From the IMG/VR virus record IMGVR_UViG_3300021399_000137, positions 69,938 to 82,638 of that record: DNA of 12,701 nt, one strand, 5' to 3'. Within the stretch, counting starts at the first letter, position 1. The number at the start of each line of letters is the position of its first letter. The DNA comes from a virus. Taxonomy: Duplodnaviria; Heunggongvirae; Uroviricota; Caudoviricetes. Shown in pieces: positions 1-12,701 of the stretch. Under the pieces are notes generated by a model, which was given only the letters and a program-made list of their open reading frames with translations, was not told where the DNA came from and did no database searches. The position numbers and the translations under genes were made by a program.

Positions 1-1006
1 TATCTTCAGACTCACTAATTATTTCATTTTCTGGAATAGTATCTTGATTTAATAAATCTGCTAACTGTTTAATACCTCCAGAAATCCATCCTACATGAGC
101 TACTTTTACATTAAAACTTCTTCCAGTATCATCCTCTGGGTCAAACCACATAATAACATCACCGTGTTTAGGTGAATTAACTACAGCTCTAGGACCTTGA
201 TAAGCATCAAATCCAGTAACTGATTTAACTTCTCCTGAAATCTCATCTGCTAATTCTTGAGCTTGACCTCTTAAATCTTCTAACCAAGCAGACATTTCTT
301 CATCATTATCATCCCATTCTCCAGTCTCATTTAAACTAGATTCTTCGAATTTATCTACTATCCAAGCTTCACAGTTGGAGTCTCTCATTAAGCCTGCTAC
401 AAATTTAGCTGCTTGTTCATAGTTATCAAAGGATTGAACATATTCTCCATTACGATTAAATTCATCATCATAGTATCTTTGCCATACTTCATATCTATCT
501 TCAGACGATTCATCTAATTTTTTGTTATGTTCATCTGCCATTTTATCTTGAGTCTTTTTAGAAACTGTAATCTTTTTAAGATGACCTGTTTTAGTATCTC
601 TAATAGATTTATTTCCATCTTTATCTACTTCTACTTTATCTGCTTCAGTTAAATCTCCAAATGGATTTTCACAGCTAAGATAATAATTATATAATTCTTC
701 AGCATTATCAAAATCTTCAGTTTTTCTATTATTAAAATTACCATCATCATCTTGCTGTGCATCTTCAATAAAACTATCAAAAAAACTACAAACACTTTCA
801 GGATTTATTTTAAATGAATTTTTATAATCATTTATATAGATACTTCCTAATACTATTTCTTGCCTTAATTTCCATAATTGTTCCTTAGTTAAATTATTAG
901 GGTCTATTCTTTCAGCTTCAGTTAATGATTTGACTTTTCTTTTAGCTTTAAATTCTTCTTCTAAACTTTCATTTAAAGCATTAAAAATATTAATATTGGT
1001 CTTCAT
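1..1006 (-). CDS. Acidic modular protein (335 aa visible, runs off the window edge); putative virion internal/head polyprotein. Not in the supplied ORF track
   Basis: Hand translation: ATG at 1006 with GGAGG 9 nt upstream; open to position 2 with no stop (MKTNINIFNALNESLEEEFKAKRKVKSLTEAERID...LNQDTIPENEIISESED). Motifs ALNE|S, SLTE|A, DLTE|A, KLDE|S, SLNE|T and IISE|S fall between apparent domains. Confidence 0.85.
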   Translation of the reverse strand, partial: MKTNINIFNALNESLEEEFKAKRKVKSLTEAERIDPNNLTKEQLWKLRQEIVLGSIYINDYKNSFKINPESVCSFFDSFIEDAQQDDDGNFNNRKTEDFDNAEELYNYYLSCENPFGDLTEADKVEVDKDGNKSIRDTKTGHLKKITVSKKTQDKMADEHNKKLDESSEDRYEVWQRYYDDEFNRNGEYVQSFDNYEQAAKFVAGLMRDSNCEAWIVDKFEESSLNETGEWDDNDEEMSAWLEDLRGQAQELADEISGEVKSVTGFDAYQGPRAVVNSPKHGDVIMWFDPEDDTGRSFNVKVAHVGWISGGIKQLADLLNQDTIPENEIISESED

Positions 1007-2276
1007 CTTCTAAATCCTCCTCTCCATCTATATCTATATTTAAATCTATATCTTCATCTGGTTCTATAGGAGTTTCTTCATTATCTTCTTTTTGTAATTC
1101 TTCAGCTGCTTCAGGATTTATTTCTATTAAACAATTCATCAAGTATTCTACTATAGCTTCATGGTCAGGAGTTAACTCATTACCATATCTAGGATTTAAT
1201 TTATTTATTTCTTCAAAAGTATTAGGAAGTTTTACAAAATCAAATCTTTGTTCTAATTCTGTTTCATTATCTTCTTCTGGTTCTTCAGAAACTTCTATTT
1301 CTTCAGCTTCTTTTAATTTAATACCTTTTTCTTTACAAGCTTTAGCAGCTTTTTCCATAGCTTCCTTATGTCTAGCTAAATTAGAATTAGCATAAAGTTC
1401 TTTATTTCTATAATATTCAGCTTCGTCTTTATCTTTATAAGTTTTTTCATCTGCTTCTTTTAAATCTTCATCAGTATCTATTTTATCCATTATAGGTTCT
1501 TCTTCTGGTATTTCTTCTGAGTTTGCTTCAGATGGATTAGTATCTACTAACATTAAAACGTCATTAGACTCATCAGCTACTTTACCTATAATATAAACAC
1601 TATTGTTTAAATCTTCTTTATCTGTGATTTGATATAAATTTAAGTCTAAATCTACTAATATGTCTCTAAGTTCATTTAATTGTGTATCTAATTTAGACTC
1701 TTCCTCTACTGGATTTTCTTCTTGGTCTTCTTCACTATCTATTGTATCTTCTAATTCTTCTTGATTTTCAATATCTTCTTTAGCTTTATCTTTTAAATCT
1801 TCGATTTCATCGTCTGCTTCTGTTAATTTAGCAGATTCATTTCTTGGAGCAATAGATTTTACATTCATTGTTAAATCTGCATGGTCTGAATTATTCCAAT
1901 TTTCTTTAAATTTATTATAAATTTCTATTGCTTCATCATCACTTGTTGCACCAAATCTTTTTACATCATTTGCATCTACTGTAATAATATAATTGTTTCC
2001 TTTAGAGTCAGTTCCAAAATTGAATTTCATTAAAGACATAAATCCGTCTCTTGCAATCTCAGTAGCATCCCAATATTCTTCAGTAGAGCTTTCTTTTAAT
2101 TTTTTATTTTTATTATTTAAATCGTTACATGCAGCTGTCATTACTTTCTTAGAACCTTTTTGTACAAACTTCTTAGTCTTAGTATCATAAACACCAAATT
2201 TAGCTCCAGTTCCATCGTATTCTCTTACTTGGTATCTATCAGATGCACTTTCTACTAATTTTAATTTCTTATACAT
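990..2276 (-). CDS. Highly acidic 428-aa modular protein; putative head/core (scaffold-like or internal) protein
   Basis: ORF with AGGAG RBS; D/E-rich low-complexity linkers; motifs KLVE|S, KLKE|S, KLTE|A, DLKE|A, KLKE|A. Function is inferred only. Confidence 0.8.
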   Translation of the reverse strand: MYKKLKLVESASDRYQVREYDGTGAKFGVYDTKTKKFVQKGSKKVMTAACNDLNNKNKKLKESSTEEYWDATEIARDGFMSLMKFNFGTDSKGNNYIITVDANDVKRFGATSDDEAIEIYNKFKENWNNSDHADLTMNVKSIAPRNESAKLTEADDEIEDLKDKAKEDIENQEELEDTIDSEEDQEENPVEEESKLDTQLNELRDILVDLDLNLYQITDKEDLNNSVYIIGKVADESNDVLMLVDTNPSEANSEEIPEEEPIMDKIDTDEDLKEADEKTYKDKDEAEYYRNKELYANSNLARHKEAMEKAAKACKEKGIKLKEAEEIEVSEEPEEDNETELEQRFDFVKLPNTFEEINKLNPRYGNELTPDHEAIVEYLMNCLIEINPEAAEELQKEDNEETPIEPDEDIDLNIDIDGEEDLEDEDQY

Positions 2277-2290
2277 TATAAATCTCCTTT

Positions 2291-2674
2291 CTAAAAACTT
2301 CTTTGTGAATAAATACTTCTATAAAACATTTCAATTGTTTTTAACCTCTCTTTTTCATTATAAAGAGGTTTAGACTCTTCTTCTATAATATCTAAAGCAG
2401 ACTTTATTCTTTCTTTCTGTTGTTTTTCTAAACTAGTATTGTTAGCTATTAACTTCATAGCTTTTTTACATTGACTAGAAAAATACTGTACTTCTGTAAT
2501 TAATTCTAATAATCTACTATATTCATATACTATAATATTAAATTGATTAGATATAAACACAGTATCTTGTTGTTTATTAAAGTCTGCCATTTCTATTTTT
2601 GGAGTATTATCTAAATACTCATCTACTTTCTTTATTAAAACATTTAAAGTATTATTTAAAGATGATAAATCCAT
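2291..2674 (-). CDS. Hypothetical helical/coiled-coil protein (127 aa)
   Basis: ORF with GGAGG RBS; heptad-like helical pattern; no recognised family. Confidence 0.75.
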   Translation of the reverse strand: MDLSSLNNTLNVLIKKVDEYLDNTPKIEMADFNKQQDTVFISNQFNIIVYEYSRLLELITEVQYFSSQCKKAMKLIANNTSLEKQQKERIKSALDIIEEESKPLYNEKERLKTIEMFYRSIYSQRSF

Positions 2675-2715
2675 TTTAATATACCTCCATAAGTTACTAT
2701 AAATATTAATATGAA

Positions 2716-4476
2716 TTATTGAACGTTTTTAATTTTTGGTTCATATTTTCTTGCAAACTCTAGTTCTTCTTCTGTTGCATCATATAAACCATCTTTTAAT
2801 GCCATTTTCATTAGTTTTTTAAATACTTCTTCCATCTCTTCATAAAATGGGTCTTCAGCTAAATCTTCATAGTCTTCTTCAGAAGCTTCATCTGGAATTC
2901 CAAAAGCTAACCAATAATTATAAAATAATTCTTCATCATTTACTTTTCTAGCAATGTTATCCATCATTTTTAATGTATTTATTTTTTCTTCTTCTGAGAT
3001 TTGCCTGAGACTTTTATCAGCTTCAGTTACAGTATCTTCTCCAGATTCACCAGAATCCTCTTTAGTATTAAATTCTTCTCCGTCTTTAATAACTTCACAT
3101 CTATCCAAATAGTCTTTATCTGCTTCTTCTTTAGACTCATAAATCTCAGCGTTTTCTATTTCACCCTCAGATAAATTATAGTTCTCACCTACTATATATC
3201 TAGTTCCCTCAGATTTATCTTCTAGCATATAAACGTTACCTTGTTCTTTAATTACTTGTAAATCTTTAACTTCTGTTTGAGCAGCTTCTACTACAGGTTT
3301 CTTTTCTATTTTTTCTGACTCTTCTAAATCATATTTATTAGCTATCATCTTCATTTGATTTTCAACTGTTTCTTCAAAATCATATACTATTTGTTTAGCT
3401 AAATTAGTACCAAAGTTTTCTACTTCTATAGTTCTTAATTGATATAATAGAGATTTCATATCAGAAATAAAATCTTCTGGGTATCCACCTAATCTTTCTG
3501 AATAGTCTTCTTTTAAAGATTTGTCACATCCTTCTTGTAATTCTTTTTCCAAATTAGCGATTTCATCTTCTATAGCAGCTTTCTCATCATCTGCTAATTG
3601 GTCACCGTCTTTTTCTAATTGAGTTTTAAGACTAGCTAATTTATCTTCTTTAGAAGTATCTATAGGAGCAGCTTCTTTTAATTGAGCAACTATAAATTTA
3701 TCAGACAGATTAATATCGTTGTTTGTATTTTTAATAAATTCATTTTTAAATTCATCTGCTTCAGACTTTGTTGGAAATCTAATAGCCTTTTCTTTTTCAT
3801 AAGCTGTAGTTTCATTGTCTATTACATATAAAGGACCTCTATCTGTTTTTATATAAATTATAAAATCTCCATTTTTAGCTTCATTAAGTTTTTTACAATT
3901 GCATTCAGCTAATGGTTTACCACACTCTTTACAGATTTCTTCTCCTTCAGAGTATAAACCTTTTTCTATACTGTCTGCTTTTGCATCTTCTATTTGTCCA
4001 TCTTCTAATTTTTTAATCATTTTTACTTCTCTTAAATCTTCTAACATTTTTCTTAATTCTTCTTTTCCATAGACAACATTATATACAGTACCTGTTTCAG
4101 TACCATCATCGTCTACTCCTACAAACTCCCAAACGTTACCTTCTTCAGCAGCTTGTTTAGCAGCTTCTAATTCTTCTGGGTCTCCACCATATTCTGACTT
4201 ATATCCTTCATCATAGTCTTCTGGATTTTGATAATTCTCAGAATATCTAACTACCATAGCTACACCATCTGGGTCTCTAAAATAAACTTCATCTCCTGAA
4301 ATTACACTATCTAAAGCTGAAGAGGCATCTTCTGTTAGAACATAATTCTTTTCTTCTTTTAATTCTTCTACCCTAACATCAGAACCTTCCATAAATACTT
4401 TTTTCTTAATTTGAATAGCTTTTGTTTCACTTTCATTAAGCTCATTCATTAAATTAAAACTAAGTTTGTTTAACAT
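2716..4476 (-). CDS. Acidic 586-aa modular protein; putative processed virion internal polyprotein containing a CxxC-x6-CxC motif
   Basis: ORF with AAGGAG RBS; motifs ELNE|S, VLTE|D, KLNE|A, QLKE|A, SLKE|D, DLEE|S, PVVE|A, TVTE|A; CKECGKPLAECNC at aa 182-194. Confidence 0.8.
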   Translation of the reverse strand: MLNKLSFNLMNELNESETKAIQIKKKVFMEGSDVRVEELKEEKNYVLTEDASSALDSVISGDEVYFRDPDGVAMVVRYSENYQNPEDYDEGYKSEYGGDPEELEAAKQAAEEGNVWEFVGVDDDGTETGTVYNVVYGKEELRKMLEDLREVKMIKKLEDGQIEDAKADSIEKGLYSEGEEICKECGKPLAECNCKKLNEAKNGDFIIYIKTDRGPLYVIDNETTAYEKEKAIRFPTKSEADEFKNEFIKNTNNDINLSDKFIVAQLKEAAPIDTSKEDKLASLKTQLEKDGDQLADDEKAAIEDEIANLEKELQEGCDKSLKEDYSERLGGYPEDFISDMKSLLYQLRTIEVENFGTNLAKQIVYDFEETVENQMKMIANKYDLEESEKIEKKPVVEAAQTEVKDLQVIKEQGNVYMLEDKSEGTRYIVGENYNLSEGEIENAEIYESKEEADKDYLDRCEVIKDGEEFNTKEDSGESGEDTVTEADKSLRQISEEEKINTLKMMDNIARKVNDEELFYNYWLAFGIPDEASEEDYEDLAEDPFYEEMEEVFKKLMKMALKDGLYDATEEELEFARKYEPKIKNVQ

Positions 4477-4494: not shown

Positions 4495-4770
4495 CTAAAC
4501 TTTTTCTAAAATCATTCCTACAGCTGTTTTTTCTTCTCCTTGTATAGATAATATGTCAAAATAAGGTTTTATTATAATGTCAAATCCTGAAGGTGTTGCT
4601 AAACCTCTAGCTGTAATTACAGCTTTTACAGCCTGATTTACTGCAGGAACTCCAACACATTTTAATTCTAGCTTATCTACGTTTTTAATATTAGCATAGA
4701 TGGCTGCAGCTAGTTTTTTAATGTCAGTATCTTTTCCTACTCTAAACTCTGGTATGTTCTTTACTTCCAT
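4495..4770 (-). CDS. spoVS: Stage V sporulation protein S (SpoVS) homologue
   Basis: CVGVPAVNQAVKAVITARGLATPSGFDIIIKPYFDILSIQGEEKTAVGMILE matches the SpoVS signature as I recall it from B. subtilis (AIGAGALNQAVKAVAIARGFVAPSGVDLICIPAFTDIQIDGEERTAIKLIV); length is typical; GGAGG RBS. Confidence 0.9.
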   Translation of the reverse strand: MEVKNIPEFRVGKDTDIKKLAAAIYANIKNVDKLELKCVGVPAVNQAVKAVITARGLATPSGFDIIIKPYFDILSIQGEEKTAVGMILEKV

Positions 4771-5521: not shown

Positions 5522-7714
5522 CTACCCTTTCTTTATATTATTTCTTTTACAATAAGAAATTATTGTATTTTTATCTCTATTTAATTTTTCAGCTATTTTT
5601 TTATGAGATATATTATTAATATTATTTTTTATAAATTCTTTTTCTTCTTTTGTTAAATAGTTAATCTTCTTTTTATATTCTATATAGTTTAATCTACAAT
5701 AATTTCTTATTGTAGGTTCAGCTCTATTTAATTTCTCTGCTATTTCTTTAAGTATCATATTTTTAGCATTTTTCTTTATAAAGTCTTTTTCTTCTGATAA
5801 AAGTGGATAAGTCTTTTTTCTTATATTTTTAAATTCTATATTATTTCTATTACAATATTCTCTAATTGTACAGTCTGACCTATTTAGTTTTTTTGCTATT
5901 TCTTTAGGCATCATATTTTCAATATTTTTCTTTATAAAATCTTTTTCTTTTTTTGATAAAGGATTAAATTCTTTTTTATATTCTATATTATTTCTAATAC
6001 AATAATAAAGTATTGTATTTTTATCTCTAATTGTTGTTCCTGATTTATTTAATTTTTTAAATATTTCTTTAATAGTCATATTTTTAGCATTTTTCTTTAT
6101 AAAATCTTTTTCTTCTTCTGTAAAAATATTATACTTTTTTTTATACTTTATATTATTTTTTTTATAATAATATCTTATTGTTGCTATACCTCTATTTAAT
6201 TTTTTTGATATTTCTTTAGGTGTCATAATCATAGCATTTTTCTTTATAAAATCTTTTTCTTCTTCTGATAAAAAATAATATTCTTTTTTAAATTCTATAT
6301 TATTTCTATCACAATAATCTCTAATTGTAGATTCTGACCTACCTAATTTTAATACTATTTTACGTATAGTCATATTTTTAGCATTTTTTTCTATAAAATC
6401 TTTTTCTTCTTCTGATAAGTAATAAACTTCTTTTTTATACTTTATATTATTTCTTTTATAATAATTTCTTATAGTACGAGGTTTTTTATTTAATTTTTTT
6501 GCTATTTCTCTAGTTATCATAGTCATAGCATTTTCTTCTATAAATTTTTTTTCTTCTTCTGATAAATAAGTAAATGTATAAGTATTTTCTTTAATTATAT
6601 TTATTAAATCTTCTTGTCTTGTATAAATTTTTAATTCTTCTTTTTTCTTTCCTACTTTAATATTAGATATACTTATATTTCTTTTTTTAGCAAAATTTTC
6701 CCAAATAGATATATATCCATTATCTAAATTATATGCGTTATTAACTAAATCAAATACTATAGCATCTTCTTTATGTTCAGAAATCATTCTACCTAATTGT
6801 TGTTGATATATAATATTACTCTGTGTCTTTCTTAAAAATACAGCCACATCTATATTAGATAAATGTATACCTTCAGTAAACATATTTATAGAATATAATA
6901 TGTTTATTCCTTCTTTAGAATTATAAAAATCTTCTAACTCTTGATTATTAAACTTTTTAGATTTTTTAGAGTGCATTACAAAATGATTAATATCTTTATC
7001 TATCCATAATTCTATAAAATTTTTAGCTTGTTCTATATCATTAATTCTAGATACAAATACTATAATATGAAGAGGTTTACTATAATCTATAAATTCTTCA
7101 AATATATTTTTTACTTCAGTATTTATATCATAATTAGATAGTTTCTTTTGTAGAGCTTTATTTTTATAATATCTGTAATCTATCTCATAAATAGAAGAAA
7201 CGTATTTTATTTGAGGTAATATTCCTTGTTCTATGGACTCAGCTAAATATAAAGGCTCTATTTCTTCATTATTAAATATTAATTCTATAGGATTTTTACC
7301 ATCCATTCTTTCAGGAGTAGCACTAAATCCTATCATTTTACCTTTATAATCTTCTAAATCTTTCTTTAATATATTACCCCATTTTTCTGTAACTGACCTA
7401 TGCATTTCATCTAAAAATATATAATCATAATCTAATAAAGACTCATGATTAAAATTTTGTTTTAGTAAATTACTATATATTATAAAATCTGTATTATTAT
7501 AATTTCCAAATTCTTTAATATATTCAACAATATTATCTCTAGGTTCTATAATAAGTTTCTTTCCTGGAAGCTTATTACATAATTCCATTATAATATGAGA
7601 TTTACCAAAACCTACCGGTCTTACTACACCAAATTTATCACAAGTCTTTAATTTTTCTAATATTAAATCTTTAGTCTTTATTCTTTCTATAGATAGTAAA
7701 CTTTTATCAAACAT
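5522..7714 (-). CDS. SF2 DExH-box helicase/ATPase (type III restriction Res-like core) with seven C-terminal tandem HTH-like repeats
   Basis: Motif I RPVGFGKS, motif II FLDEMHR, motif III SATPER, motif V NMFTEGIHL, motif VI QQQLGR; repeats from aa 384 to 730; no nuclease motif seen. Confidence 0.9.
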   Translation of the reverse strand: MFDKSLLSIERIKTKDLILEKLKTCDKFGVVRPVGFGKSHIIMELCNKLPGKKLIIEPRDNIVEYIKEFGNYNNTDFIIYSNLLKQNFNHESLLDYDYIFLDEMHRSVTEKWGNILKKDLEDYKGKMIGFSATPERMDGKNPIELIFNNEEIEPLYLAESIEQGILPQIKYVSSIYEIDYRYYKNKALQKKLSNYDINTEVKNIFEEFIDYSKPLHIIVFVSRINDIEQAKNFIELWIDKDINHFVMHSKKSKKFNNQELEDFYNSKEGINILYSINMFTEGIHLSNIDVAVFLRKTQSNIIYQQQLGRMISEHKEDAIVFDLVNNAYNLDNGYISIWENFAKKRNISISNIKVGKKKEELKIYTRQEDLINIIKENTYTFTYLSEEEKKFIEENAMTMITREIAKKLNKKPRTIRNYYKRNNIKYKKEVYYLSEEEKDFIEKNAKNMTIRKIVLKLGRSESTIRDYCDRNNIEFKKEYYFLSEEEKDFIKKNAMIMTPKEISKKLNRGIATIRYYYKKNNIKYKKKYNIFTEEEKDFIKKNAKNMTIKEIFKKLNKSGTTIRDKNTILYYCIRNNIEYKKEFNPLSKKEKDFIKKNIENMMPKEIAKKLNRSDCTIREYCNRNNIEFKNIRKKTYPLLSEEKDFIKKNAKNMILKEIAEKLNRAEPTIRNYCRLNYIEYKKKINYLTKEEKEFIKNNINNISHKKIAEKLNRDKNTIISYCKRNNIKKG
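5525..6565 (-). repeat. Seven tandem ~49-aa (~147-nt) coding repeats, consensus LSEEEKDFIKKNAKNMTxKEIAKKLNRxxxTIRxYCxRNNIEYKK
   Basis: Repeats start at aa 384, 433, 482, 531, 586, 638 and 687 and are visible in both protein and DNA; three-helix (Myb/SANT-like HTH) pattern. Confidence 0.95.
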
Positions 7715-8791: not shown

Positions 8792-9067
8792 TTATAATGC
8801 TAAATTAGTAAGATAGTCATCTAAATTTAATAATAAATCTACATCGTTTAAATCTTCTTCTTTAATGCCTAATTTAATTAATTCAGATTTTTCCCAATTT
8901 ATTCTGTCATCGTCGTCATCCCAAGCATTAGCATTTATCATTCGACTTATTTTATCTATTAAAGGTTTTAAATATTCAGGAATTTCTGTATTATTCCAAT
9001 CTACATTATTCATATCATTAACTAATTTGTCTATACTAATTTCTTTATTTAATATTATCTGACTCAT
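8792..9067 (-). CDS. Hypothetical acidic protein (91 aa); may be a frameshifted continuation of 9045..9347
   Basis: ORF with no clear SD sequence; its ATG lies 23 nt inside the upstream gene. Confidence 0.65.
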   Translation of the reverse strand: MSQIILNKEISIDKLVNDMNNVDWNNTEIPEYLKPLIDKISRMINANAWDDDDDRINWEKSELIKLGIKEEDLNDVDLLLNLDDYLTNLAL

Positions 9068-9347
9068 CTAAATACTCAGCATTATCTTCAAATGTAGTAG
9101 AAACTAAACTTTTAACTGTATCTAAATCGTCACCATCCATTTCACATTGGTCAAATACTGATTGAACTTCATTCTCTAAAACTCCATCTGGAATTTCGTT
9201 TATTAATTGTTGAATATCATCCATATCTTCACAACTATCTAGTCTTTGTGCAAAGTTTTCTGCATCCTCTATAGTAATAGACTCTTTTAAATTTTCTTCT
9301 TTTAAATTATTTTGTATACTTTCAAATAATTTTCTTGTTTCACTCAT
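9045..9347 (-). CDS. Leader-bearing, very acidic small protein (100 aa)
   Basis: N-terminus MSETRKLFESIQNNLKE; D/E-rich helical body; AAGGAGG RBS. Confidence 0.85.
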   Translation of the reverse strand: MSETRKLFESIQNNLKEENLKESITIEDAENFAQRLDSCEDMDDIQQLINEIPDGVLENEVQSVFDQCEMDGDDLDTVKSLVSTTFEDNAEYLDESDNIK

Positions 9348-9834
9348 TTTTATAAACCTCCTTAATTACTTTAGCAATTTTACAAATATATTCTTTTCTA
9401 TCTGATTTTATAATAAATTCATCGATAGATTTATCATATTCTTTTCCGATATATGCATTTACAAAGCTAGATATTACTAAATCTCTATCTAATTCTGGGT
9501 TGTCTAATAATGTTTGTCTACATACTAAAACTGAATAATCTAAATTATACGGACCTTTTAACTCTACAGGTTCTACCTCATAAAGATAATTATATTCTGA
9601 TTTATATTCATTAGCAATATTTATATCATTAGTTAAATATACTGCTCTAGATATAAATTTAATTCCTAAAGCTGTATTATATGCTAGTGCTATATCTTTA
9701 GGTATACTGTTTACATTTACAATTAAGTCACCTGGTTCATAGTGAGTACCATTACCACTATAAAATATATTGTTTGAGTTATCTTCGTTAAGGCTATTTT
9801 CTATACTTTCTAATAACTTTCTTGTTTCACTCAT
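9340..9834 (-). CDS. Leader-bearing ADP-ribosyltransferase-like protein (Arr / H-Y-E clade-like)
   Basis: Leader MSETRKLLESIENSLNE; IFYSGN...PGDLI (compare FYHGT...GDLL), AVYLTNDINIANEY, YLYEVEP, and a C-terminal strand KEYI...AKVIKEV. The canonical His is replaced by Ser. Confidence 0.55.
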   Translation of the reverse strand: MSETRKLLESIENSLNEDNSNNIFYSGNGTHYEPGDLIVNVNSIPKDIALAYNTALGIKFISRAVYLTNDINIANEYKSEYNYLYEVEPVELKGPYNLDYSVLVCRQTLLDNPELDRDLVISSFVNAYIGKEYDKSIDEFIIKSDRKEYICKIAKVIKEVYKNE

Positions 9835-9847
9835 AATTATTCCTCCT

Positions 9848-10093
9848 TTATCTTTCCAAATCTTCTTCTTTAGATTTAACTAATCCTCGTTCTAAAGCTT
9901 CTTTATATGGCATAGCATTAAAGTGAAAATGAGTTCCTTCTTTACTCCACATATCATAACTACTATCACCAGGATTAAATATGATATGGTCTATTTGTGG
10001 ATGTTGTCTAGTATCAGTTATGAATGTTAAATCATCTCCACCTATGTAATAATTTCTATCTCTTAAAAACTGTTGTATTTCCCAATCATACAT
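9848..10093 (-). CDS. Hypothetical protein (81 aa), no leader
   Basis: ORF with AAGGAG RBS; no recognised family. Confidence 0.75.
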   Translation of the reverse strand: MYDWEIQQFLRDRNYYIGGDDLTFITDTRQHPQIDHIIFNPGDSSYDMWSKEGTHFHFNAMPYKEALERGLVKSKEEDLER

Positions 10094-10113
10094 CTTTTGT
10101 TTCTCCTTATATT

Positions 10114-10341
10114 TTATTTTTCTCGATATTTAAACTTATCTTGATAGTTTTTATTAATCCAATATTGATTTAATACTTTACAGTTCTCTTCATAGTTTTC
10201 TAAAAACTTCATAGAGTCTATTAAAACATCTAGTTTTTCTAACGCACTTATTGGGTCTATAGACTCTTCTTTTAAAGCTTCACCTTCGTGTTGAAGTAAG
10301 CTTATTAATTTATCTATCATTAATTTCTTATTATCATCCAT
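10114..10341 (-). CDS. Hypothetical helical protein (75 aa), no leader
   Basis: ORF with AAAGGA RBS; no recognised family. Confidence 0.7.
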   Translation of the reverse strand: MDDNKKLMIDKLISLLQHEGEALKEESIDPISALEKLDVLIDSMKFLENYEENCKVLNQYWINKNYQDKFKYREK

Positions 10342-10362
10342 TTATACTAATCCTTTCAAAGT

Positions 10363-11379
10363 TTAATAAGTATTTATAGCTCCTGTATCAGCATAATAAT
10401 ATCCTTCAAAGTTTAAATCTCTACCAAAAGCTTCGTAATCAAAATGATTTTCAAAAAATCCATTGTCATTATCAGCAATAGCAGTTTGTATATCTTCATC
10501 TACCATAGCATCTAAAGTCTCTTCTGAATATTCTTCATCTACAGAGTCTAAATATTCTTCTATCCCTTCAGCTACAGAGTTTCTGTCAATATAATTTTCT
10601 TTATTAGATACGCCTTCAAAACCAACCATATCAACATAAGCTTTACCTAAATCTTCGTCATTATCTACTCCTGGAAAAAATATATAATCTCCACTTTCAT
10701 AAATGTTTAATGCTTCTTCAAAGTTATCATTGTGCTCTTCAAATATAGCTAAGAAAGCGTCTTTATTATTAATATCCTCTAATTTTTCTAATTGTTCTAT
10801 TATTTCCCAAGGGTTATCATATTCATCTACACTAATAGGACAATTTTCAGTATCATTTATAAAAGGTTCTTCGTCTTTATGAGCTTCTAAAAATTCTTTA
10901 GCTTGGTCTACAGACATCCAACCACCATTTATAGACTCTACATCTGCGCCATTAATATTATAATTACCCCAAGTATTCATATATAGTTGAATATTATTAA
11001 AATCTTCATCTTCATGTAAATGTTTTTCAGGTTTAACTATAGATGACTCTTTAACAATTCTATCTTTATTTATTATCTTTTCTAATACTTCATTTATATT
11101 AGTATTAGTAATTATTTTTTCTTGGTCTGCAGGAGTTAAAGCTTGATAACCTCCATCTTTACCACTAGCTATTATAGTAGTCCATTTCCAATCTTGACCA
11201 AAATCAAAATAAGTGTTTTGAACTGAATAAGAATGCTTCAATCCACTTCTATTTAATTTAATACAAAAATCTTTTAAGCGTTTAAACTCTAAGCTGTCTT
11301 CAGGAAATACTCTAATAAATTCAGAGTTTTCATTTAAATTTCTTTGGAAACTTTCAAATAATTTTTTAGTATTTGACAT
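10363..11379 (-). CDS. ardA: Leader + unknown domain + ArdA anti-restriction (type I RM DNA-mimic) domain
   Basis: IQLYMNTWGNYN (ArdA VYIANLGKYN), EEPFINDTENCPISVDEYDN (EEYAIHDYELPFTVDEY) and NHFDYEAFGRDLNFEGYY (NYIDYQAYGRDLDLSG) match ArdA motifs from aa ~124 to 338; strongly acidic; leader MSNTKKLFESFQRNLNE. Confidence 0.85.
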   Translation of the reverse strand: MSNTKKLFESFQRNLNENSEFIRVFPEDSLEFKRLKDFCIKLNRSGLKHSYSVQNTYFDFGQDWKWTTIIASGKDGGYQALTPADQEKIITNTNINEVLEKIINKDRIVKESSIVKPEKHLHEDEDFNNIQLYMNTWGNYNINGADVESINGGWMSVDQAKEFLEAHKDEEPFINDTENCPISVDEYDNPWEIIEQLEKLEDINNKDAFLAIFEEHNDNFEEALNIYESGDYIFFPGVDNDEDLGKAYVDMVGFEGVSNKENYIDRNSVAEGIEEYLDSVDEEYSEETLDAMVDEDIQTAIADNDNGFFENHFDYEAFGRDLNFEGYYYADTGAINTY

Positions 11380-11381
11380 CT

Positions 11382-11825
11382 TTATACCTCCTTATATATA
11401 ATTCCATTCATTCCTATAGTAACATCTAATCTATCTCCTTCTGAATTTTCTCCAAAAGCTTCTTCATTTTTATATGTAGGAGTAAATCCTTTAGATAACA
11501 TTTCATCTGATATACAGACTCCTTTATACTCCTTAGGAGTTCCTACTTTAAAAATATTACTATGGTCTATTACTTTATTATTAATTACATTCCAAAAATG
11601 TGGTTGATATGAACCGTCTTCTAAAACTACTTTACCACCATAAATTTTTTCAGCATCGTTCTCTGAATATGCTTTAAAAGCATTTATTTTACAAGCATCA
11701 GTTCTAGGATTATAATTTTTACCCTTTTCAAATTCAGTAAAACTTTCAGCATTATTTGGAAGATTTATATCTTCATTAAGATTATTTTGTATACTTTCTA
11801 ATAATTTCATTGTATCATTTTTCAT
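11382..11825 (-). CDS. Leader-bearing papain/transglutaminase-fold-like protein (putative Cys-His-Asp triad)
   Basis: Leader MKNDTMKLLESIQNNLNE; DAC45KINA, YGG, QPH76FWNV and VID87 fit the C-x2-N...H-x-W...D pattern. Confidence 0.5.
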   Translation of the reverse strand: MKNDTMKLLESIQNNLNEDINLPNNAESFTEFEKGKNYNPRTDACKINAFKAYSENDAEKIYGGKVVLEDGSYQPHFWNVINNKVIDHSNIFKVGTPKEYKGVCISDEMLSKGFTPTYKNEEAFGENSEGDRLDVTIGMNGIIYKEV

Positions 11826-11838
11826 AATATCCTCCTTT

Positions 11839-12357
11839 TTAAATTTCTTCTACTTTTCCTTTAATATCTTTATTATTGTTAATTAAATTAATTAAATCAT
11901 GTTCAGCATTATCTTTATCAGAATAAACTTTAGCGTTATCTCTATTAACTATTGATTTATCATCACTTAGATAACCCTCTTCATTTGTAGATAAATTAGA
12001 TGCATATACTATATATTTATTTTCTACGTCTATAAATGTAGATTTATCAAAATCATTTTTTAATTTTTTAATTGTACTATAAATATCATTAGATTTTTCT
12101 ACACTTAAATGTATACTAGGTCCATTCATATTTCCTTTATTAGTATGTAAAACTGTTCCTTTATCTTTTTTAGTATCTAATTTAACATATTTTCCTGCGT
12201 CTGTAATCCATAGGTCGGCATTATCATAACTTACTGATATAGATTTAGCAGTTTGTTTAGCATTTTTATCAAATATAGATTTTACTGCATTTAAAAGTTC
12301 ACTTTCATTTAAATTAGATTGTATACTTTCTAACAGTTTTATTGTATCATTTTTCAT
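11839..12357 (-). CDS. Leader-bearing hypothetical protein (172 aa)
   Basis: Leader MKNDTIKLLESIQSNLNE; AAGGAG RBS; C-terminal module ending NAKVYSDKDNAE. Confidence 0.8.
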   Translation of the reverse strand: MKNDTIKLLESIQSNLNESELLNAVKSIFDKNAKQTAKSISVSYDNADLWITDAGKYVKLDTKKDKGTVLHTNKGNMNGPSIHLSVEKSNDIYSTIKKLKNDFDKSTFIDVENKYIVYASNLSTNEEGYLSDDKSIVNRDNAKVYSDKDNAEHDLINLINNNKDIKGKVEEI

Positions 12358-12371
12358 AATAATATTCTCCT

Positions 12372-12701
12372 TTATTTTTTAGAAGATTTTTTTCTTTTAG
12401 TCTTTTTAGTATTTTTGTCTAGTTGTTTAAGTAGACCTTCAACCCAATCAGACAATTCTGGATATAGTTTAATAGTATCTTTATTAGATTGATAATATTG
12501 GTTAGCTGTATCTCCAAACACATAACCCATAGCTTGCCAATCACAAATCATTTCTATATATGCTTTTTTAACTAAATTTTCATTTTCTAATGGAATTAAT
12601 TCTCCACTTTCATCTATCCAATGTTGCCAATGATGTGGATTATTTTGAAAATGATGATACCAAGCAGCTTGAAAATTAGCTTCGTTAGCTATAGATCGGA
12701 A
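12372..12701 (-). CDS. DUF5662-like HD-related protein (5' part outside the window). Not in the supplied ORF track
   Basis: Hand translation: ...FQAAWYHHFQNNPHHWQHWIDESG...AYIEMICDWQAMG...KKSSKK*, with TAA at 12374-12372. The AWxHH...NxHHWxxW...EMICDW signature is what I recall for DUF5662. Confidence 0.7.
   Translation of the reverse strand, partial: FRSIANEANFQAAWYHHFQNNPHHWQHWIDESGELIPLENENLVKKAYIEMICDWQAMGYVFGDTANQYYQSNKDTIKLYPELSDWVEGLLKQLDKNTKKTKRKKSSKK

Follow-up and report, generated by a model that had tools for sequence, protein, structure and literature searches.

The window analysed here is the final 12.7 kb (12,701 nt; positions 69,938 to 82,638) of an 82.6-kb IMG/VR viral contig, IMGVR_UViG_3300021399_000137. 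On its minus strand are five open reading frames (ORFs) that begin with a common leader of 17-18 amino acids (aa), M-S-x-T-[RK]-K-L-[FL]-E-S-[IF]-Q-N-N-L-[NK]-E, and then encode different proteins. In the reading that we consider best, with a probability of roughly 0.6, this leader is a bipartite capsid-targeting propeptide that would be removed by the S77 prohead protease encoded on the same contig. The arrangement would correspond to the capsid-targeting sequence (CTS) and internal proteins of phage T4, with a new tag and with polyproteins added.

Beginning next to the contig end, the five leaders are MKNDTIKLLESIQSNLNE (18 aa, 12304..12357, 35.9 bits), which opens a 172-aa ORF of unknown fold (11839-12357); MKNDTMKLLESIQNNLNE (18 aa, 11772..11825, 39.6 bits), which opens a 147-aa ORF (11382-11825); MSNTKKLFESFQRNLNE (17 aa, 11329..11379, 36.4 bits), at the start of a 338-aa ORF with two modules (10363-11379); MSETRKLLESIENSLNE (17 aa, 9784..9834, 36.5 bits), at the start of a 164-aa ORF (9340-9834); and MSETRKLFESIQNNLKE (17 aa, 9297..9347, 41.1 bits), which fronts an acidic ORF of 100 aa (9045-9347). 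A hidden Markov model (HMM) was built from these five leaders and used to scan all six frames of the contig. The five scored 35.9-41.1 bits and the runner-up 5.9 bits, a gap indicating that the shared leader did not arise by chance. Past approximately residue 20, there is no similarity among the five proteins.

The DNA 5′ of each leader ATG consists of the 3′ end of the preceding gene and a ribosome-binding site and is otherwise unrelated, and the conserved leader residues are encoded by differing codons (TTA, CTT and CTG for Leu, AAA and AAG for Lys, ACA and ACT for Thr). Thus, the leader is conserved at the protein level. This bears on the idea that the 51-54 nt are a nucleic-acid element, either the boundary of a recombination cassette or an enhancer of translation initiation, and that the peptide has no role. 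Comparison of the window with the relative L039 gives this idea some basis: leaders of two types, MSxT[RK]K.. and MKN[DN]T[MI]K.., have been swapped on near-identical cargo, with LNE as the switch point, which shows that recombination takes place within or at the leader. The L039 homologue of the 164-aa protein has an MK-type leader. Two homologues of the 172-aa protein (P0033 and P0021) have the MS type. However, the similarity begins exactly at the ATG, the codon differences include two-base changes in Leu codons, a profile search recovers the peptide across clusters whose DNA has diverged, and internal protein linkers carry the same motif. We consider a nucleic-acid element very improbable.

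A profile of seven leaders was searched exhaustively against 1.84 billion representative proteins. In total, 41 clusters matched at E ≤ 1e-3, with lengths of 29-722 aa, and for 40 the match begins at residue 1. Among these 40, the conserved columns are T (39), K (39), L (40), E (40), S (39), Q (37), N (37), L (37) and E (39), and at every column after the final Glu the commonest residue occurs in no more than 8 sequences. Conservation collapses after N-L-[NK]-E, and the family boundary is exactly at that Glu. Two L-x-E sites, 8 residues apart, make the leader bipartite: K-L-[FL]-E↓S and then N-L-[NK]-E↓ (the arrow marks the point after Glu). The first site, K-L-x-E↓S, is kept in 40 of 40 leader sequences, and its Glu is residue 9 in the MS-type leader and residue 10 in the MKN type. 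In one leader of the complete relative G003 (G003:C1:113783-114331; L026 1991-2542), NLNQ replaces NLNE, and the second-site Glu is gone with the first site, ALFE↓S, intact.

Dozens of unrelated cargos carry the leader at their N terminus, and their contexts are exclusively phage-like and metagenomic. The ten clusters that were looked up were all metagenomic, with 1-4 members each. Where the array context is visible, it is that of one phage lineage, with the array behind a DUF5662 gene and flanked by genes for an SNF2 helicase, DNA ligase, SpoVS and large acidic proteins. The arrays contain 2 leader genes in G003 (132.9 kb), 5 in L014 and 8 in L039. A scan of viral contigs for the leader pattern confirmed one locus; a 22-aa query seldom passes tblastn. 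In Bacillus phage vB_BceM-HSE3, the nearest isolate with a related capsid, an unsupervised search of the first 50 kb returned one borderline pair of proteins with a shared N terminus.

The contig encodes T4-type head proteins, for which Pfam and PHROGs agree: a gp20-type portal (Portal_T4, 2.6e-40), a gp21-type protease (Peptidase_S77, 2.3e-16; 60.3 bits against a cut-off of 27; genome 26696-27490) and a Gp23-type capsid protein (2.2e-47). A scaffold-like protein of 295 aa is the candidate for the scaffold. When the protease was aligned to the T4 gp21 crystal structure (5JBL), His (in GESNHP) and Ser (in GVSSRG) were found at both positions mutated to Ala in the crystallised, inactive construct. 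The probable start of the protease, MKQILNE↓QLTSSLFE↓A, has two sites with the spacing seen in the leader, 8 residues. In T4 gp21 there is an LIE at residue 9 (PMC9026906). T4 gp23 sheds a propeptide of 65 residues, and gp21 cleaves after L/I-x-E (PMC9026906); the gp23 chain lengths of 521 and 456 aa are consistent with this loss. The capsid protein of the contig aligns from residue 83 onward with gp23 from residue 96 onward, and VLTE↓AGT is located 14 residues ahead of the aligned core. Two more [LI]-x-E sites are within the N-terminal 31 residues. From this alignment we predict a cleavable capsid propeptide, with L-T-E↓A as the likely counterpart of the gp23 maturation site. Over the contig and G003, [LI]-x-E occurs in residues 3-20 of 12 out of 18 proteins of the portal-to-capsid block and of 80 out of 264 others (Fisher p 0.002).

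Much of this was anticipated by an earlier note on this DNA, made from the letters alone. It had described five ORFs that share an N-terminal leader ending in L-x-E and then diverge, and had looked to a gp21-like protease and a gp23-like capsid on the contig, and to leader-bearing proteins in phages rather than on non-phage chromosomal genes. All of its sequence-level predictions held. It missed the two-site layout of the leader, the use of the second half as a linker in polyproteins, and the strong acidity of the cargo, a contrast with the T4 internal proteins.

The L-x-E motif also recurs between the modules of longer proteins. In the 338-aa protein, an L-H-E↓D site (aa 121-123; 11011..11019, minus strand) lies in a disordered linker directly ahead of the ArdA module (aa 127-338; 10366..11001, minus strand). 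The column ahead of the ArdA boundary in an alignment of 7 sequences is [LI]-x-E in six homologues (LHE, LTE, LSE, LNE, INE and LEE) and LSDE in the seventh. ArdA is preceded by the LNE↓ of the leader itself in L009 (..NLNE↓EYNPLN..), by LHE↓D in the window and by LSE↓D in P0017. Other cargo modules likewise are fronted by the leader in one phage and internal in another, in each examined case after [LI]-x-E or a near match to it. P0017 contains the module of the 100-aa ORF at an internal position, after LDESALNE↓, and P0028 likewise contains the P0035 module, after STKLKE↓. In P0030 a whole leader is internal, between two modules.

The minus strand of the window at 2..4476 contains a 127-aa ORF and the genes of three acidic polyproteins, of 949 aa (as measured in the full contig), 428 aa and 586 aa. 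The modules of the polyproteins are divided by K-L-x-E↓[SA] sites. A homologue of the 428-aa polyprotein in L040 opens with the leader, and the C-terminal module of the 586-aa polyprotein, which follows ISE↓, is leader-fronted in G003. The three polyproteins contain 14 occurrences of L-x-E[SA], with 2.2 expected (z 8.4), and long metagenomic leader proteins contain 11 of E[ST]-x-L-x-E, with 0.4 expected (z 15.6). Reversed controls were flat for both motifs. The second half of the leader doubles as the linker between modules.

A related signature was found among the structural genes. The gene for a 354-aa protein is located between that for a head-tail adaptor (phrog_211) and those for the sheath and tube. 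The protein has a leader-like start, MKRESLNIISSLNE↓SILNE↓K, and its G003 homologue, which the leader HMM detects, starts MRNSKTVELFESYQENLNE↓K. It includes a basic region of 180 residues (isoelectric point, pI, 9.5), and its C-terminal module, after SLNE↓, is homologous to modules of the leader proteins P0040 (E 1.9e-9) and the 183-aa protein of G003 (E 1.4e-5). Given the leader-like start and the shared module, a protein of the late structural block is built on the same grammar.

The linkers allow another explanation, namely that the phage uses a polyprotein strategy in the cytoplasm and does not encapsidate these proteins. The leader and the L-x-E linkers would then be sites for another protease, either the leader-tagged Cys-His-Asp protein or a host enzyme, and the array would be a device for the release of small anti-defence proteins. 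The modules are clearly bounded by conserved linkers, a papain-like candidate is encoded within the array itself, and both the acidic cargo and the early-type gene neighbourhood would suit action in the cytoplasm. Phage polyvalent proteins, moreover, often carry their own peptidase (PMC5512222). However, the motif fits the specificity of the S77 family and the maturation site of the capsid itself. A cytoplasmic strategy gives no reason for a conserved 17-aa helix on proteins with a single module, and leaves the leader-like protein of the structural module unexplained. We judge it quite unlikely.

The first gene of the array encodes a DUF5662 protein (12372..12701, minus strand; Pfam 2.7e-19) and is truncated at the contig end. 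In the relatives L014 (MSNTIKLLESIQRVLNE), L040, L039 and L012, the DUF5662 protein has the leader in full or degenerate form, so the array of the window continues past the contig end. No mention of DUF5662 was found in a literature search. If the leader were instead an uncleaved functional helix, it could be a docking, oligomerisation or localisation tag for a common partner, such as DUF5662, a chaperone or the membrane, and L-x-E would be an incidental feature of an amphipathic Leu/Glu helix. In keeping with this, the leader is predicted to form a helix whose hydrophobic residues fall at i, i+1, i+4 and i+8, and DUF5662 is always first in the array. But its leader-tagged state in several relatives makes DUF5662 look like cargo rather than a partner, and no other conserved enzyme adjoins the arrays. 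An uncleaved helix is also hard to reconcile with conservation that ends exactly at Glu17, with the recurrence of the second half of the leader as an internal linker, and with the full internal leader of P0030. We regard this explanation as unlikely.

Two promoter-like motifs, TTATATAT and GCATAATA, are over-represented in the intergenic DNA of G003. Upstream of seven genes there is a GCATAATA within 60 nt or less, and none occurs in the structural block (21-83 kb). By comparison, TTATATAT is upstream of eight genes of the structural block and three outside it, one of the three being the DUF5662-leader operon. The probability of this split between structural and other genes, computed by hand, is 0.004 (hypergeometric, 165/43758). 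The motif TTATATAT is also found ahead of the array operon in L014, L016, L012, L015 and L040, and ahead of structural operons in the contig that includes the window. Regarding position, TTATATAT(T/A) is 20-45 nt before start codons, and (T)GCATAATA often follows a hairpin and T-run and is restricted to non-structural genes. The T4 late-promoter octamer TATAAATA, which was tried as a marker, is not enriched in G003 intergenic DNA (1 of 24 copies).

If the leader is a capsid-targeting propeptide, its amphipathic N-terminal helix would dock the cargo on the prohead's scaffolding core, after which the gp21-like S77 protease would cut twice: at residue 9/10 (K-L-[FL]-E↓S), the position of the T4 CTS, and at residue 17/18 (N-L-[NK]-E↓). 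The cargo would be freed inside the head and ejected with the DNA. Since the [LI]-x-E grammar is also found between modules, one protease would process the polyproteins too, dicing these and other multi-module proteins into single effectors. The cargo may amount to a ready-made kit for anti-defence and host takeover, comprising ArdA (against type I restriction), a possible ADP-ribosyltransferase (ART) fold, a papain/transglutaminase-like protein and many acidic proteins of unknown function. A broader proposal, which we hold tentatively and at somewhat less than even odds, is that any module that follows the bipartite leader, or that ES-x-L-x-E linkers flank in a polyprotein, enters the prohead and is then freed by the S77 protease, in which case the virion would deliver ArdA and dozens of acidic proteins, possibly DNA mimics.

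Among the cargo proteins of the window, ArdA, an anti-restriction DNA mimic, is the best defined. The module matched Pfam PF07275 (1.3e-9; 39.3 bits against a cut-off of 27) and, in Foldseek, the structure 2W82 (E 1.7e-5; template modelling score, TM, 0.70), as expected from the ArdA assignment in the earlier note. The AlphaFold2 (AF2) model of the 338-aa protein has a helix at residues 3-18, a first module of low confidence, residues 110-126 (with IVKE↓S and HLHE↓D inside) devoid of secondary structure, and ArdA at 127-338 with a predicted local distance difference test score (pLDDT) of 75-93. The sole tblastn match of this protein was a distant ArdA. The "ART-like" and "Cys-His-Asp" domains described in the same note survive as leads. 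For the 164-aa protein, ESM Atlas neighbours are DUF2441, Arr-ms and DUF3990 (TM 0.47-0.61; 0.36-0.61 when PARP is included), which makes it a possible ART-fold candidate (Arr/DUF2441-like), but it has no Pfam match and no Protein Data Bank (PDB) sequence match. Its AF2 model, from an alignment of 2 sequences, has a pLDDT of 38 and is unusable. The 147-aa protein has YunG, Phage_YunG-like and Transglut_core as Atlas neighbours and is a lead for a YunG/transglutaminase-like Cys-His-Asp protein, but its Pfam match to YunG (E 0.016) is below threshold, and a PDB sequence search returned nothing useful. No informative structural neighbours were found for the 172-aa protein. Across 38 metagenomic leader proteins, Pfam named one ArdA and one YunG and nothing else. 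The leader protein P0025 (L015 670-1155), which has no Pfam match at E ≤ 1e-3, includes a terminal ..REQDGRHRV.. motif; we take this to resemble ParB/Srx-fold nucleases.

The 100-aa acidic ORF, which had been taken for a stand-alone mini-protein, is the front half of a longer gene. The second module of this gene is the 91-aa ORF at 8792..9067 (minus strand), and in L039 the two ORFs are a single 184-aa gene (96% nucleotide identity, with a single 1-nt gap). In the region 9040-9070, a single A near 9045-9050 is present in the window and absent from L039 (AATATTAAATAAAG, compared with AATATT-AATAAAG), which reflects either a true frameshift or a misassembled short run of A. The 91-aa module is located directly behind the leader in P0022 (aa 20-102, 54% identity).

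Several observations weigh against a capsid-targeting role. No homology of the leader to the T4 CTS is detectable, the layout alone being alike, and there are no T-even proteins among the 41 profile matches. The genome G002 (IMGVR_UViG_3300035497_000162; 119.7 kb, 94% complete), with a capsid identity of 81%, has no leader match and no DUF5662; either the array is dispensable or it is in the missing 6%. The array adjoins DNA-metabolism genes (SNF2 helicase and ligase), away from the head genes. An extended -10 element, TGnTATAAT, is also located upstream of DUF5662 in L039 and G003, so early expression is possible. None of the sequencing runs listed for the sequence is an RNA run. The internal protein genes of T4 are expressed both early and late, and such dual expression would fit the array. 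Without their leaders, the cargo proteins are strongly acidic (median pI 4.47; pI < 6 in 29 of 35), whereas the T4 internal proteins are basic and DNA-associated. ArdA is classically made from incoming DNA rather than carried in. In addition, a generic enrichment of [LI]-x-E was dropped as evidence because the reversed control was equally enriched; the motif is common in this Leu/Glu-rich proteome. In combination, the capsid-targeting role proposed in the earlier note is partly supported, as the head genes, the leader family, its L-x-E end and the capsid L-T-E↓A agree with it, while packaging, cleavage and injection are predicted from these features.

Other features of the phage are as follows. 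Within the array are two small ORFs that lack the leader (81 and 75 aa; 9848..10341, minus strand), neither with a family match. A 730-aa helicase-like protein (window 5522-7714) has approximately seven tandem helix-turn-helix-like repeats of the form LSEEEKDFIKKNA..TIR.YC.RNNI. The contig has a GC content of 27% and an estimated completeness of 65% (CheckV), and 105 of its 107 called genes are on the minus strand. The window had no megablast match among 50,697 phage records. Genes for SpoVS-like (window 4495-4770), SpoVG-like (genome 40440-40709), HU and GroES-like proteins point to a spore-forming Firmicute host, probably one from the animal gut and, on the SpoVS and SpoVG genes, probably of the class Clostridia. 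A 186-aa protein (genome 44739-45299; L007:6739-7299, minus strand) has sigma-70 region 2 only (28.1 bits, cut-off 24); its gene adjoins that of the clamp loader, and its size equals that of the T4 late sigma factor gp55. No S77 protease was found in G001, a 35% fragment that is uninformative on whether leader and protease occur together.

If the broader proposal given above holds, this would be the first case of polyprotein-style effector delivery via the maturation protease of a tailed phage, and the first of ArdA as virion cargo. If the leader works as a capsid-targeting tag, phages of Gram-positive gut bacteria would have arrived anew, using other tags, at the T4 principle of one tag and one protease, and would have applied it to polyproteins as well. 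Sequence alone would suffice to list the proteins that an uncultured phage group injects, giving more than 40 unannotated, mostly acidic candidate anti-defence families, and engineered phages would gain a second, longer packaging tag for protein delivery. The surprise is limited, since the concept is already established for T4.

Among known systems, the Dar proteins of phage P1 (DarA, DarB, Hdf, Ulx, DdrA and DdrB) are anti-restriction proteins that enter the head during assembly and are then injected, as proposed here. Their incorporation depends on ordered protein-protein interactions, and we know of no shared cleavable leader and no T4-type protease motif in them (see also PMC5512222).

In giant phages, inner-body and ejection proteins (phiKZ gp175, SPN3US gp245 and those of 201phi2-1) are processed after S/A-x-E (PMC9026906, PMC7411985). 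As in our proposal, a gp21-related protease cuts many head-internal proteins after Glu, at redundant sites, in propeptides and between domains. The preferred P3 residue is Ser/Ala there and Leu/Ile here, those genomes are 2-3 times larger, and no one leader family common to such proteins has been described in them.

Polyvalent proteins (Iyer, Burroughs, Anand, de Souza and Aravind, 2017; PMC5512222) are multi-module effectors of phages and conjugative elements. They combine domains such as ArdA, ART, ParB-like and peptidase-like ones and have been predicted to accompany the DNA. Multi-module ArdA proteins occur here too (P0017), although most modules here belong to no Pfam family. Processing of polyvalent proteins is attributed to built-in MPTase-type peptidases, whereas the small modules here are divided by a motif of the prohead-protease type and also occur as stand-alone genes with a shared leader. 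A protein with large polyvalent-protein-associated domain 11 (LPD11) is encoded in L040 (4416-5522), a few genes upstream of the leader array.

The closest parallel is T4, in which the CTS of IPI, IPII and IPIII and the Alt propeptide are removed by gp21 (PMC9026906, PMC3012670; Mullaney and Black, 1996, as cited there). In both systems a short N-terminal peptide ending in L/I-x-E is found on unrelated proteins. The T4 CTS is 10 aa long, with residues 8 and 10 governing processing (PMC9026906), and the first L-x-E of our leader falls similarly at residue 9/10. Head genes of the gp20, gp21 and gp23 types are present in this phage too, and its anti-restriction cargo and possible ART parallel IPI* and Alt, the latter being a packaged ART (PMC9026906, PMC3012670). 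The earlier note overstated the novelty of the idea, given that the literature already presents the internal proteins of T-even phages as varied defence proteins with the CTS alone in common (PMC3012670, PMC9026906), and that GFP, nucleases and other proteins have been packaged by means of the T4 CTS (PMC9026906). In contrast to T4, the leader here has 17-18 aa and is bipartite with sites 8 residues apart, its second half also serves as a polyprotein linker, most of the cargo is very acidic and not basic, the cargo genes are in tandem arrays of 2-8, and the host is probably an animal-gut Firmicute. What is new is the sequence of the tag, its two-site design and reuse as a polyprotein linker, ArdA and acidic proteins of unknown function as predicted cargo, and the setting in a Firmicute-type gut phage.

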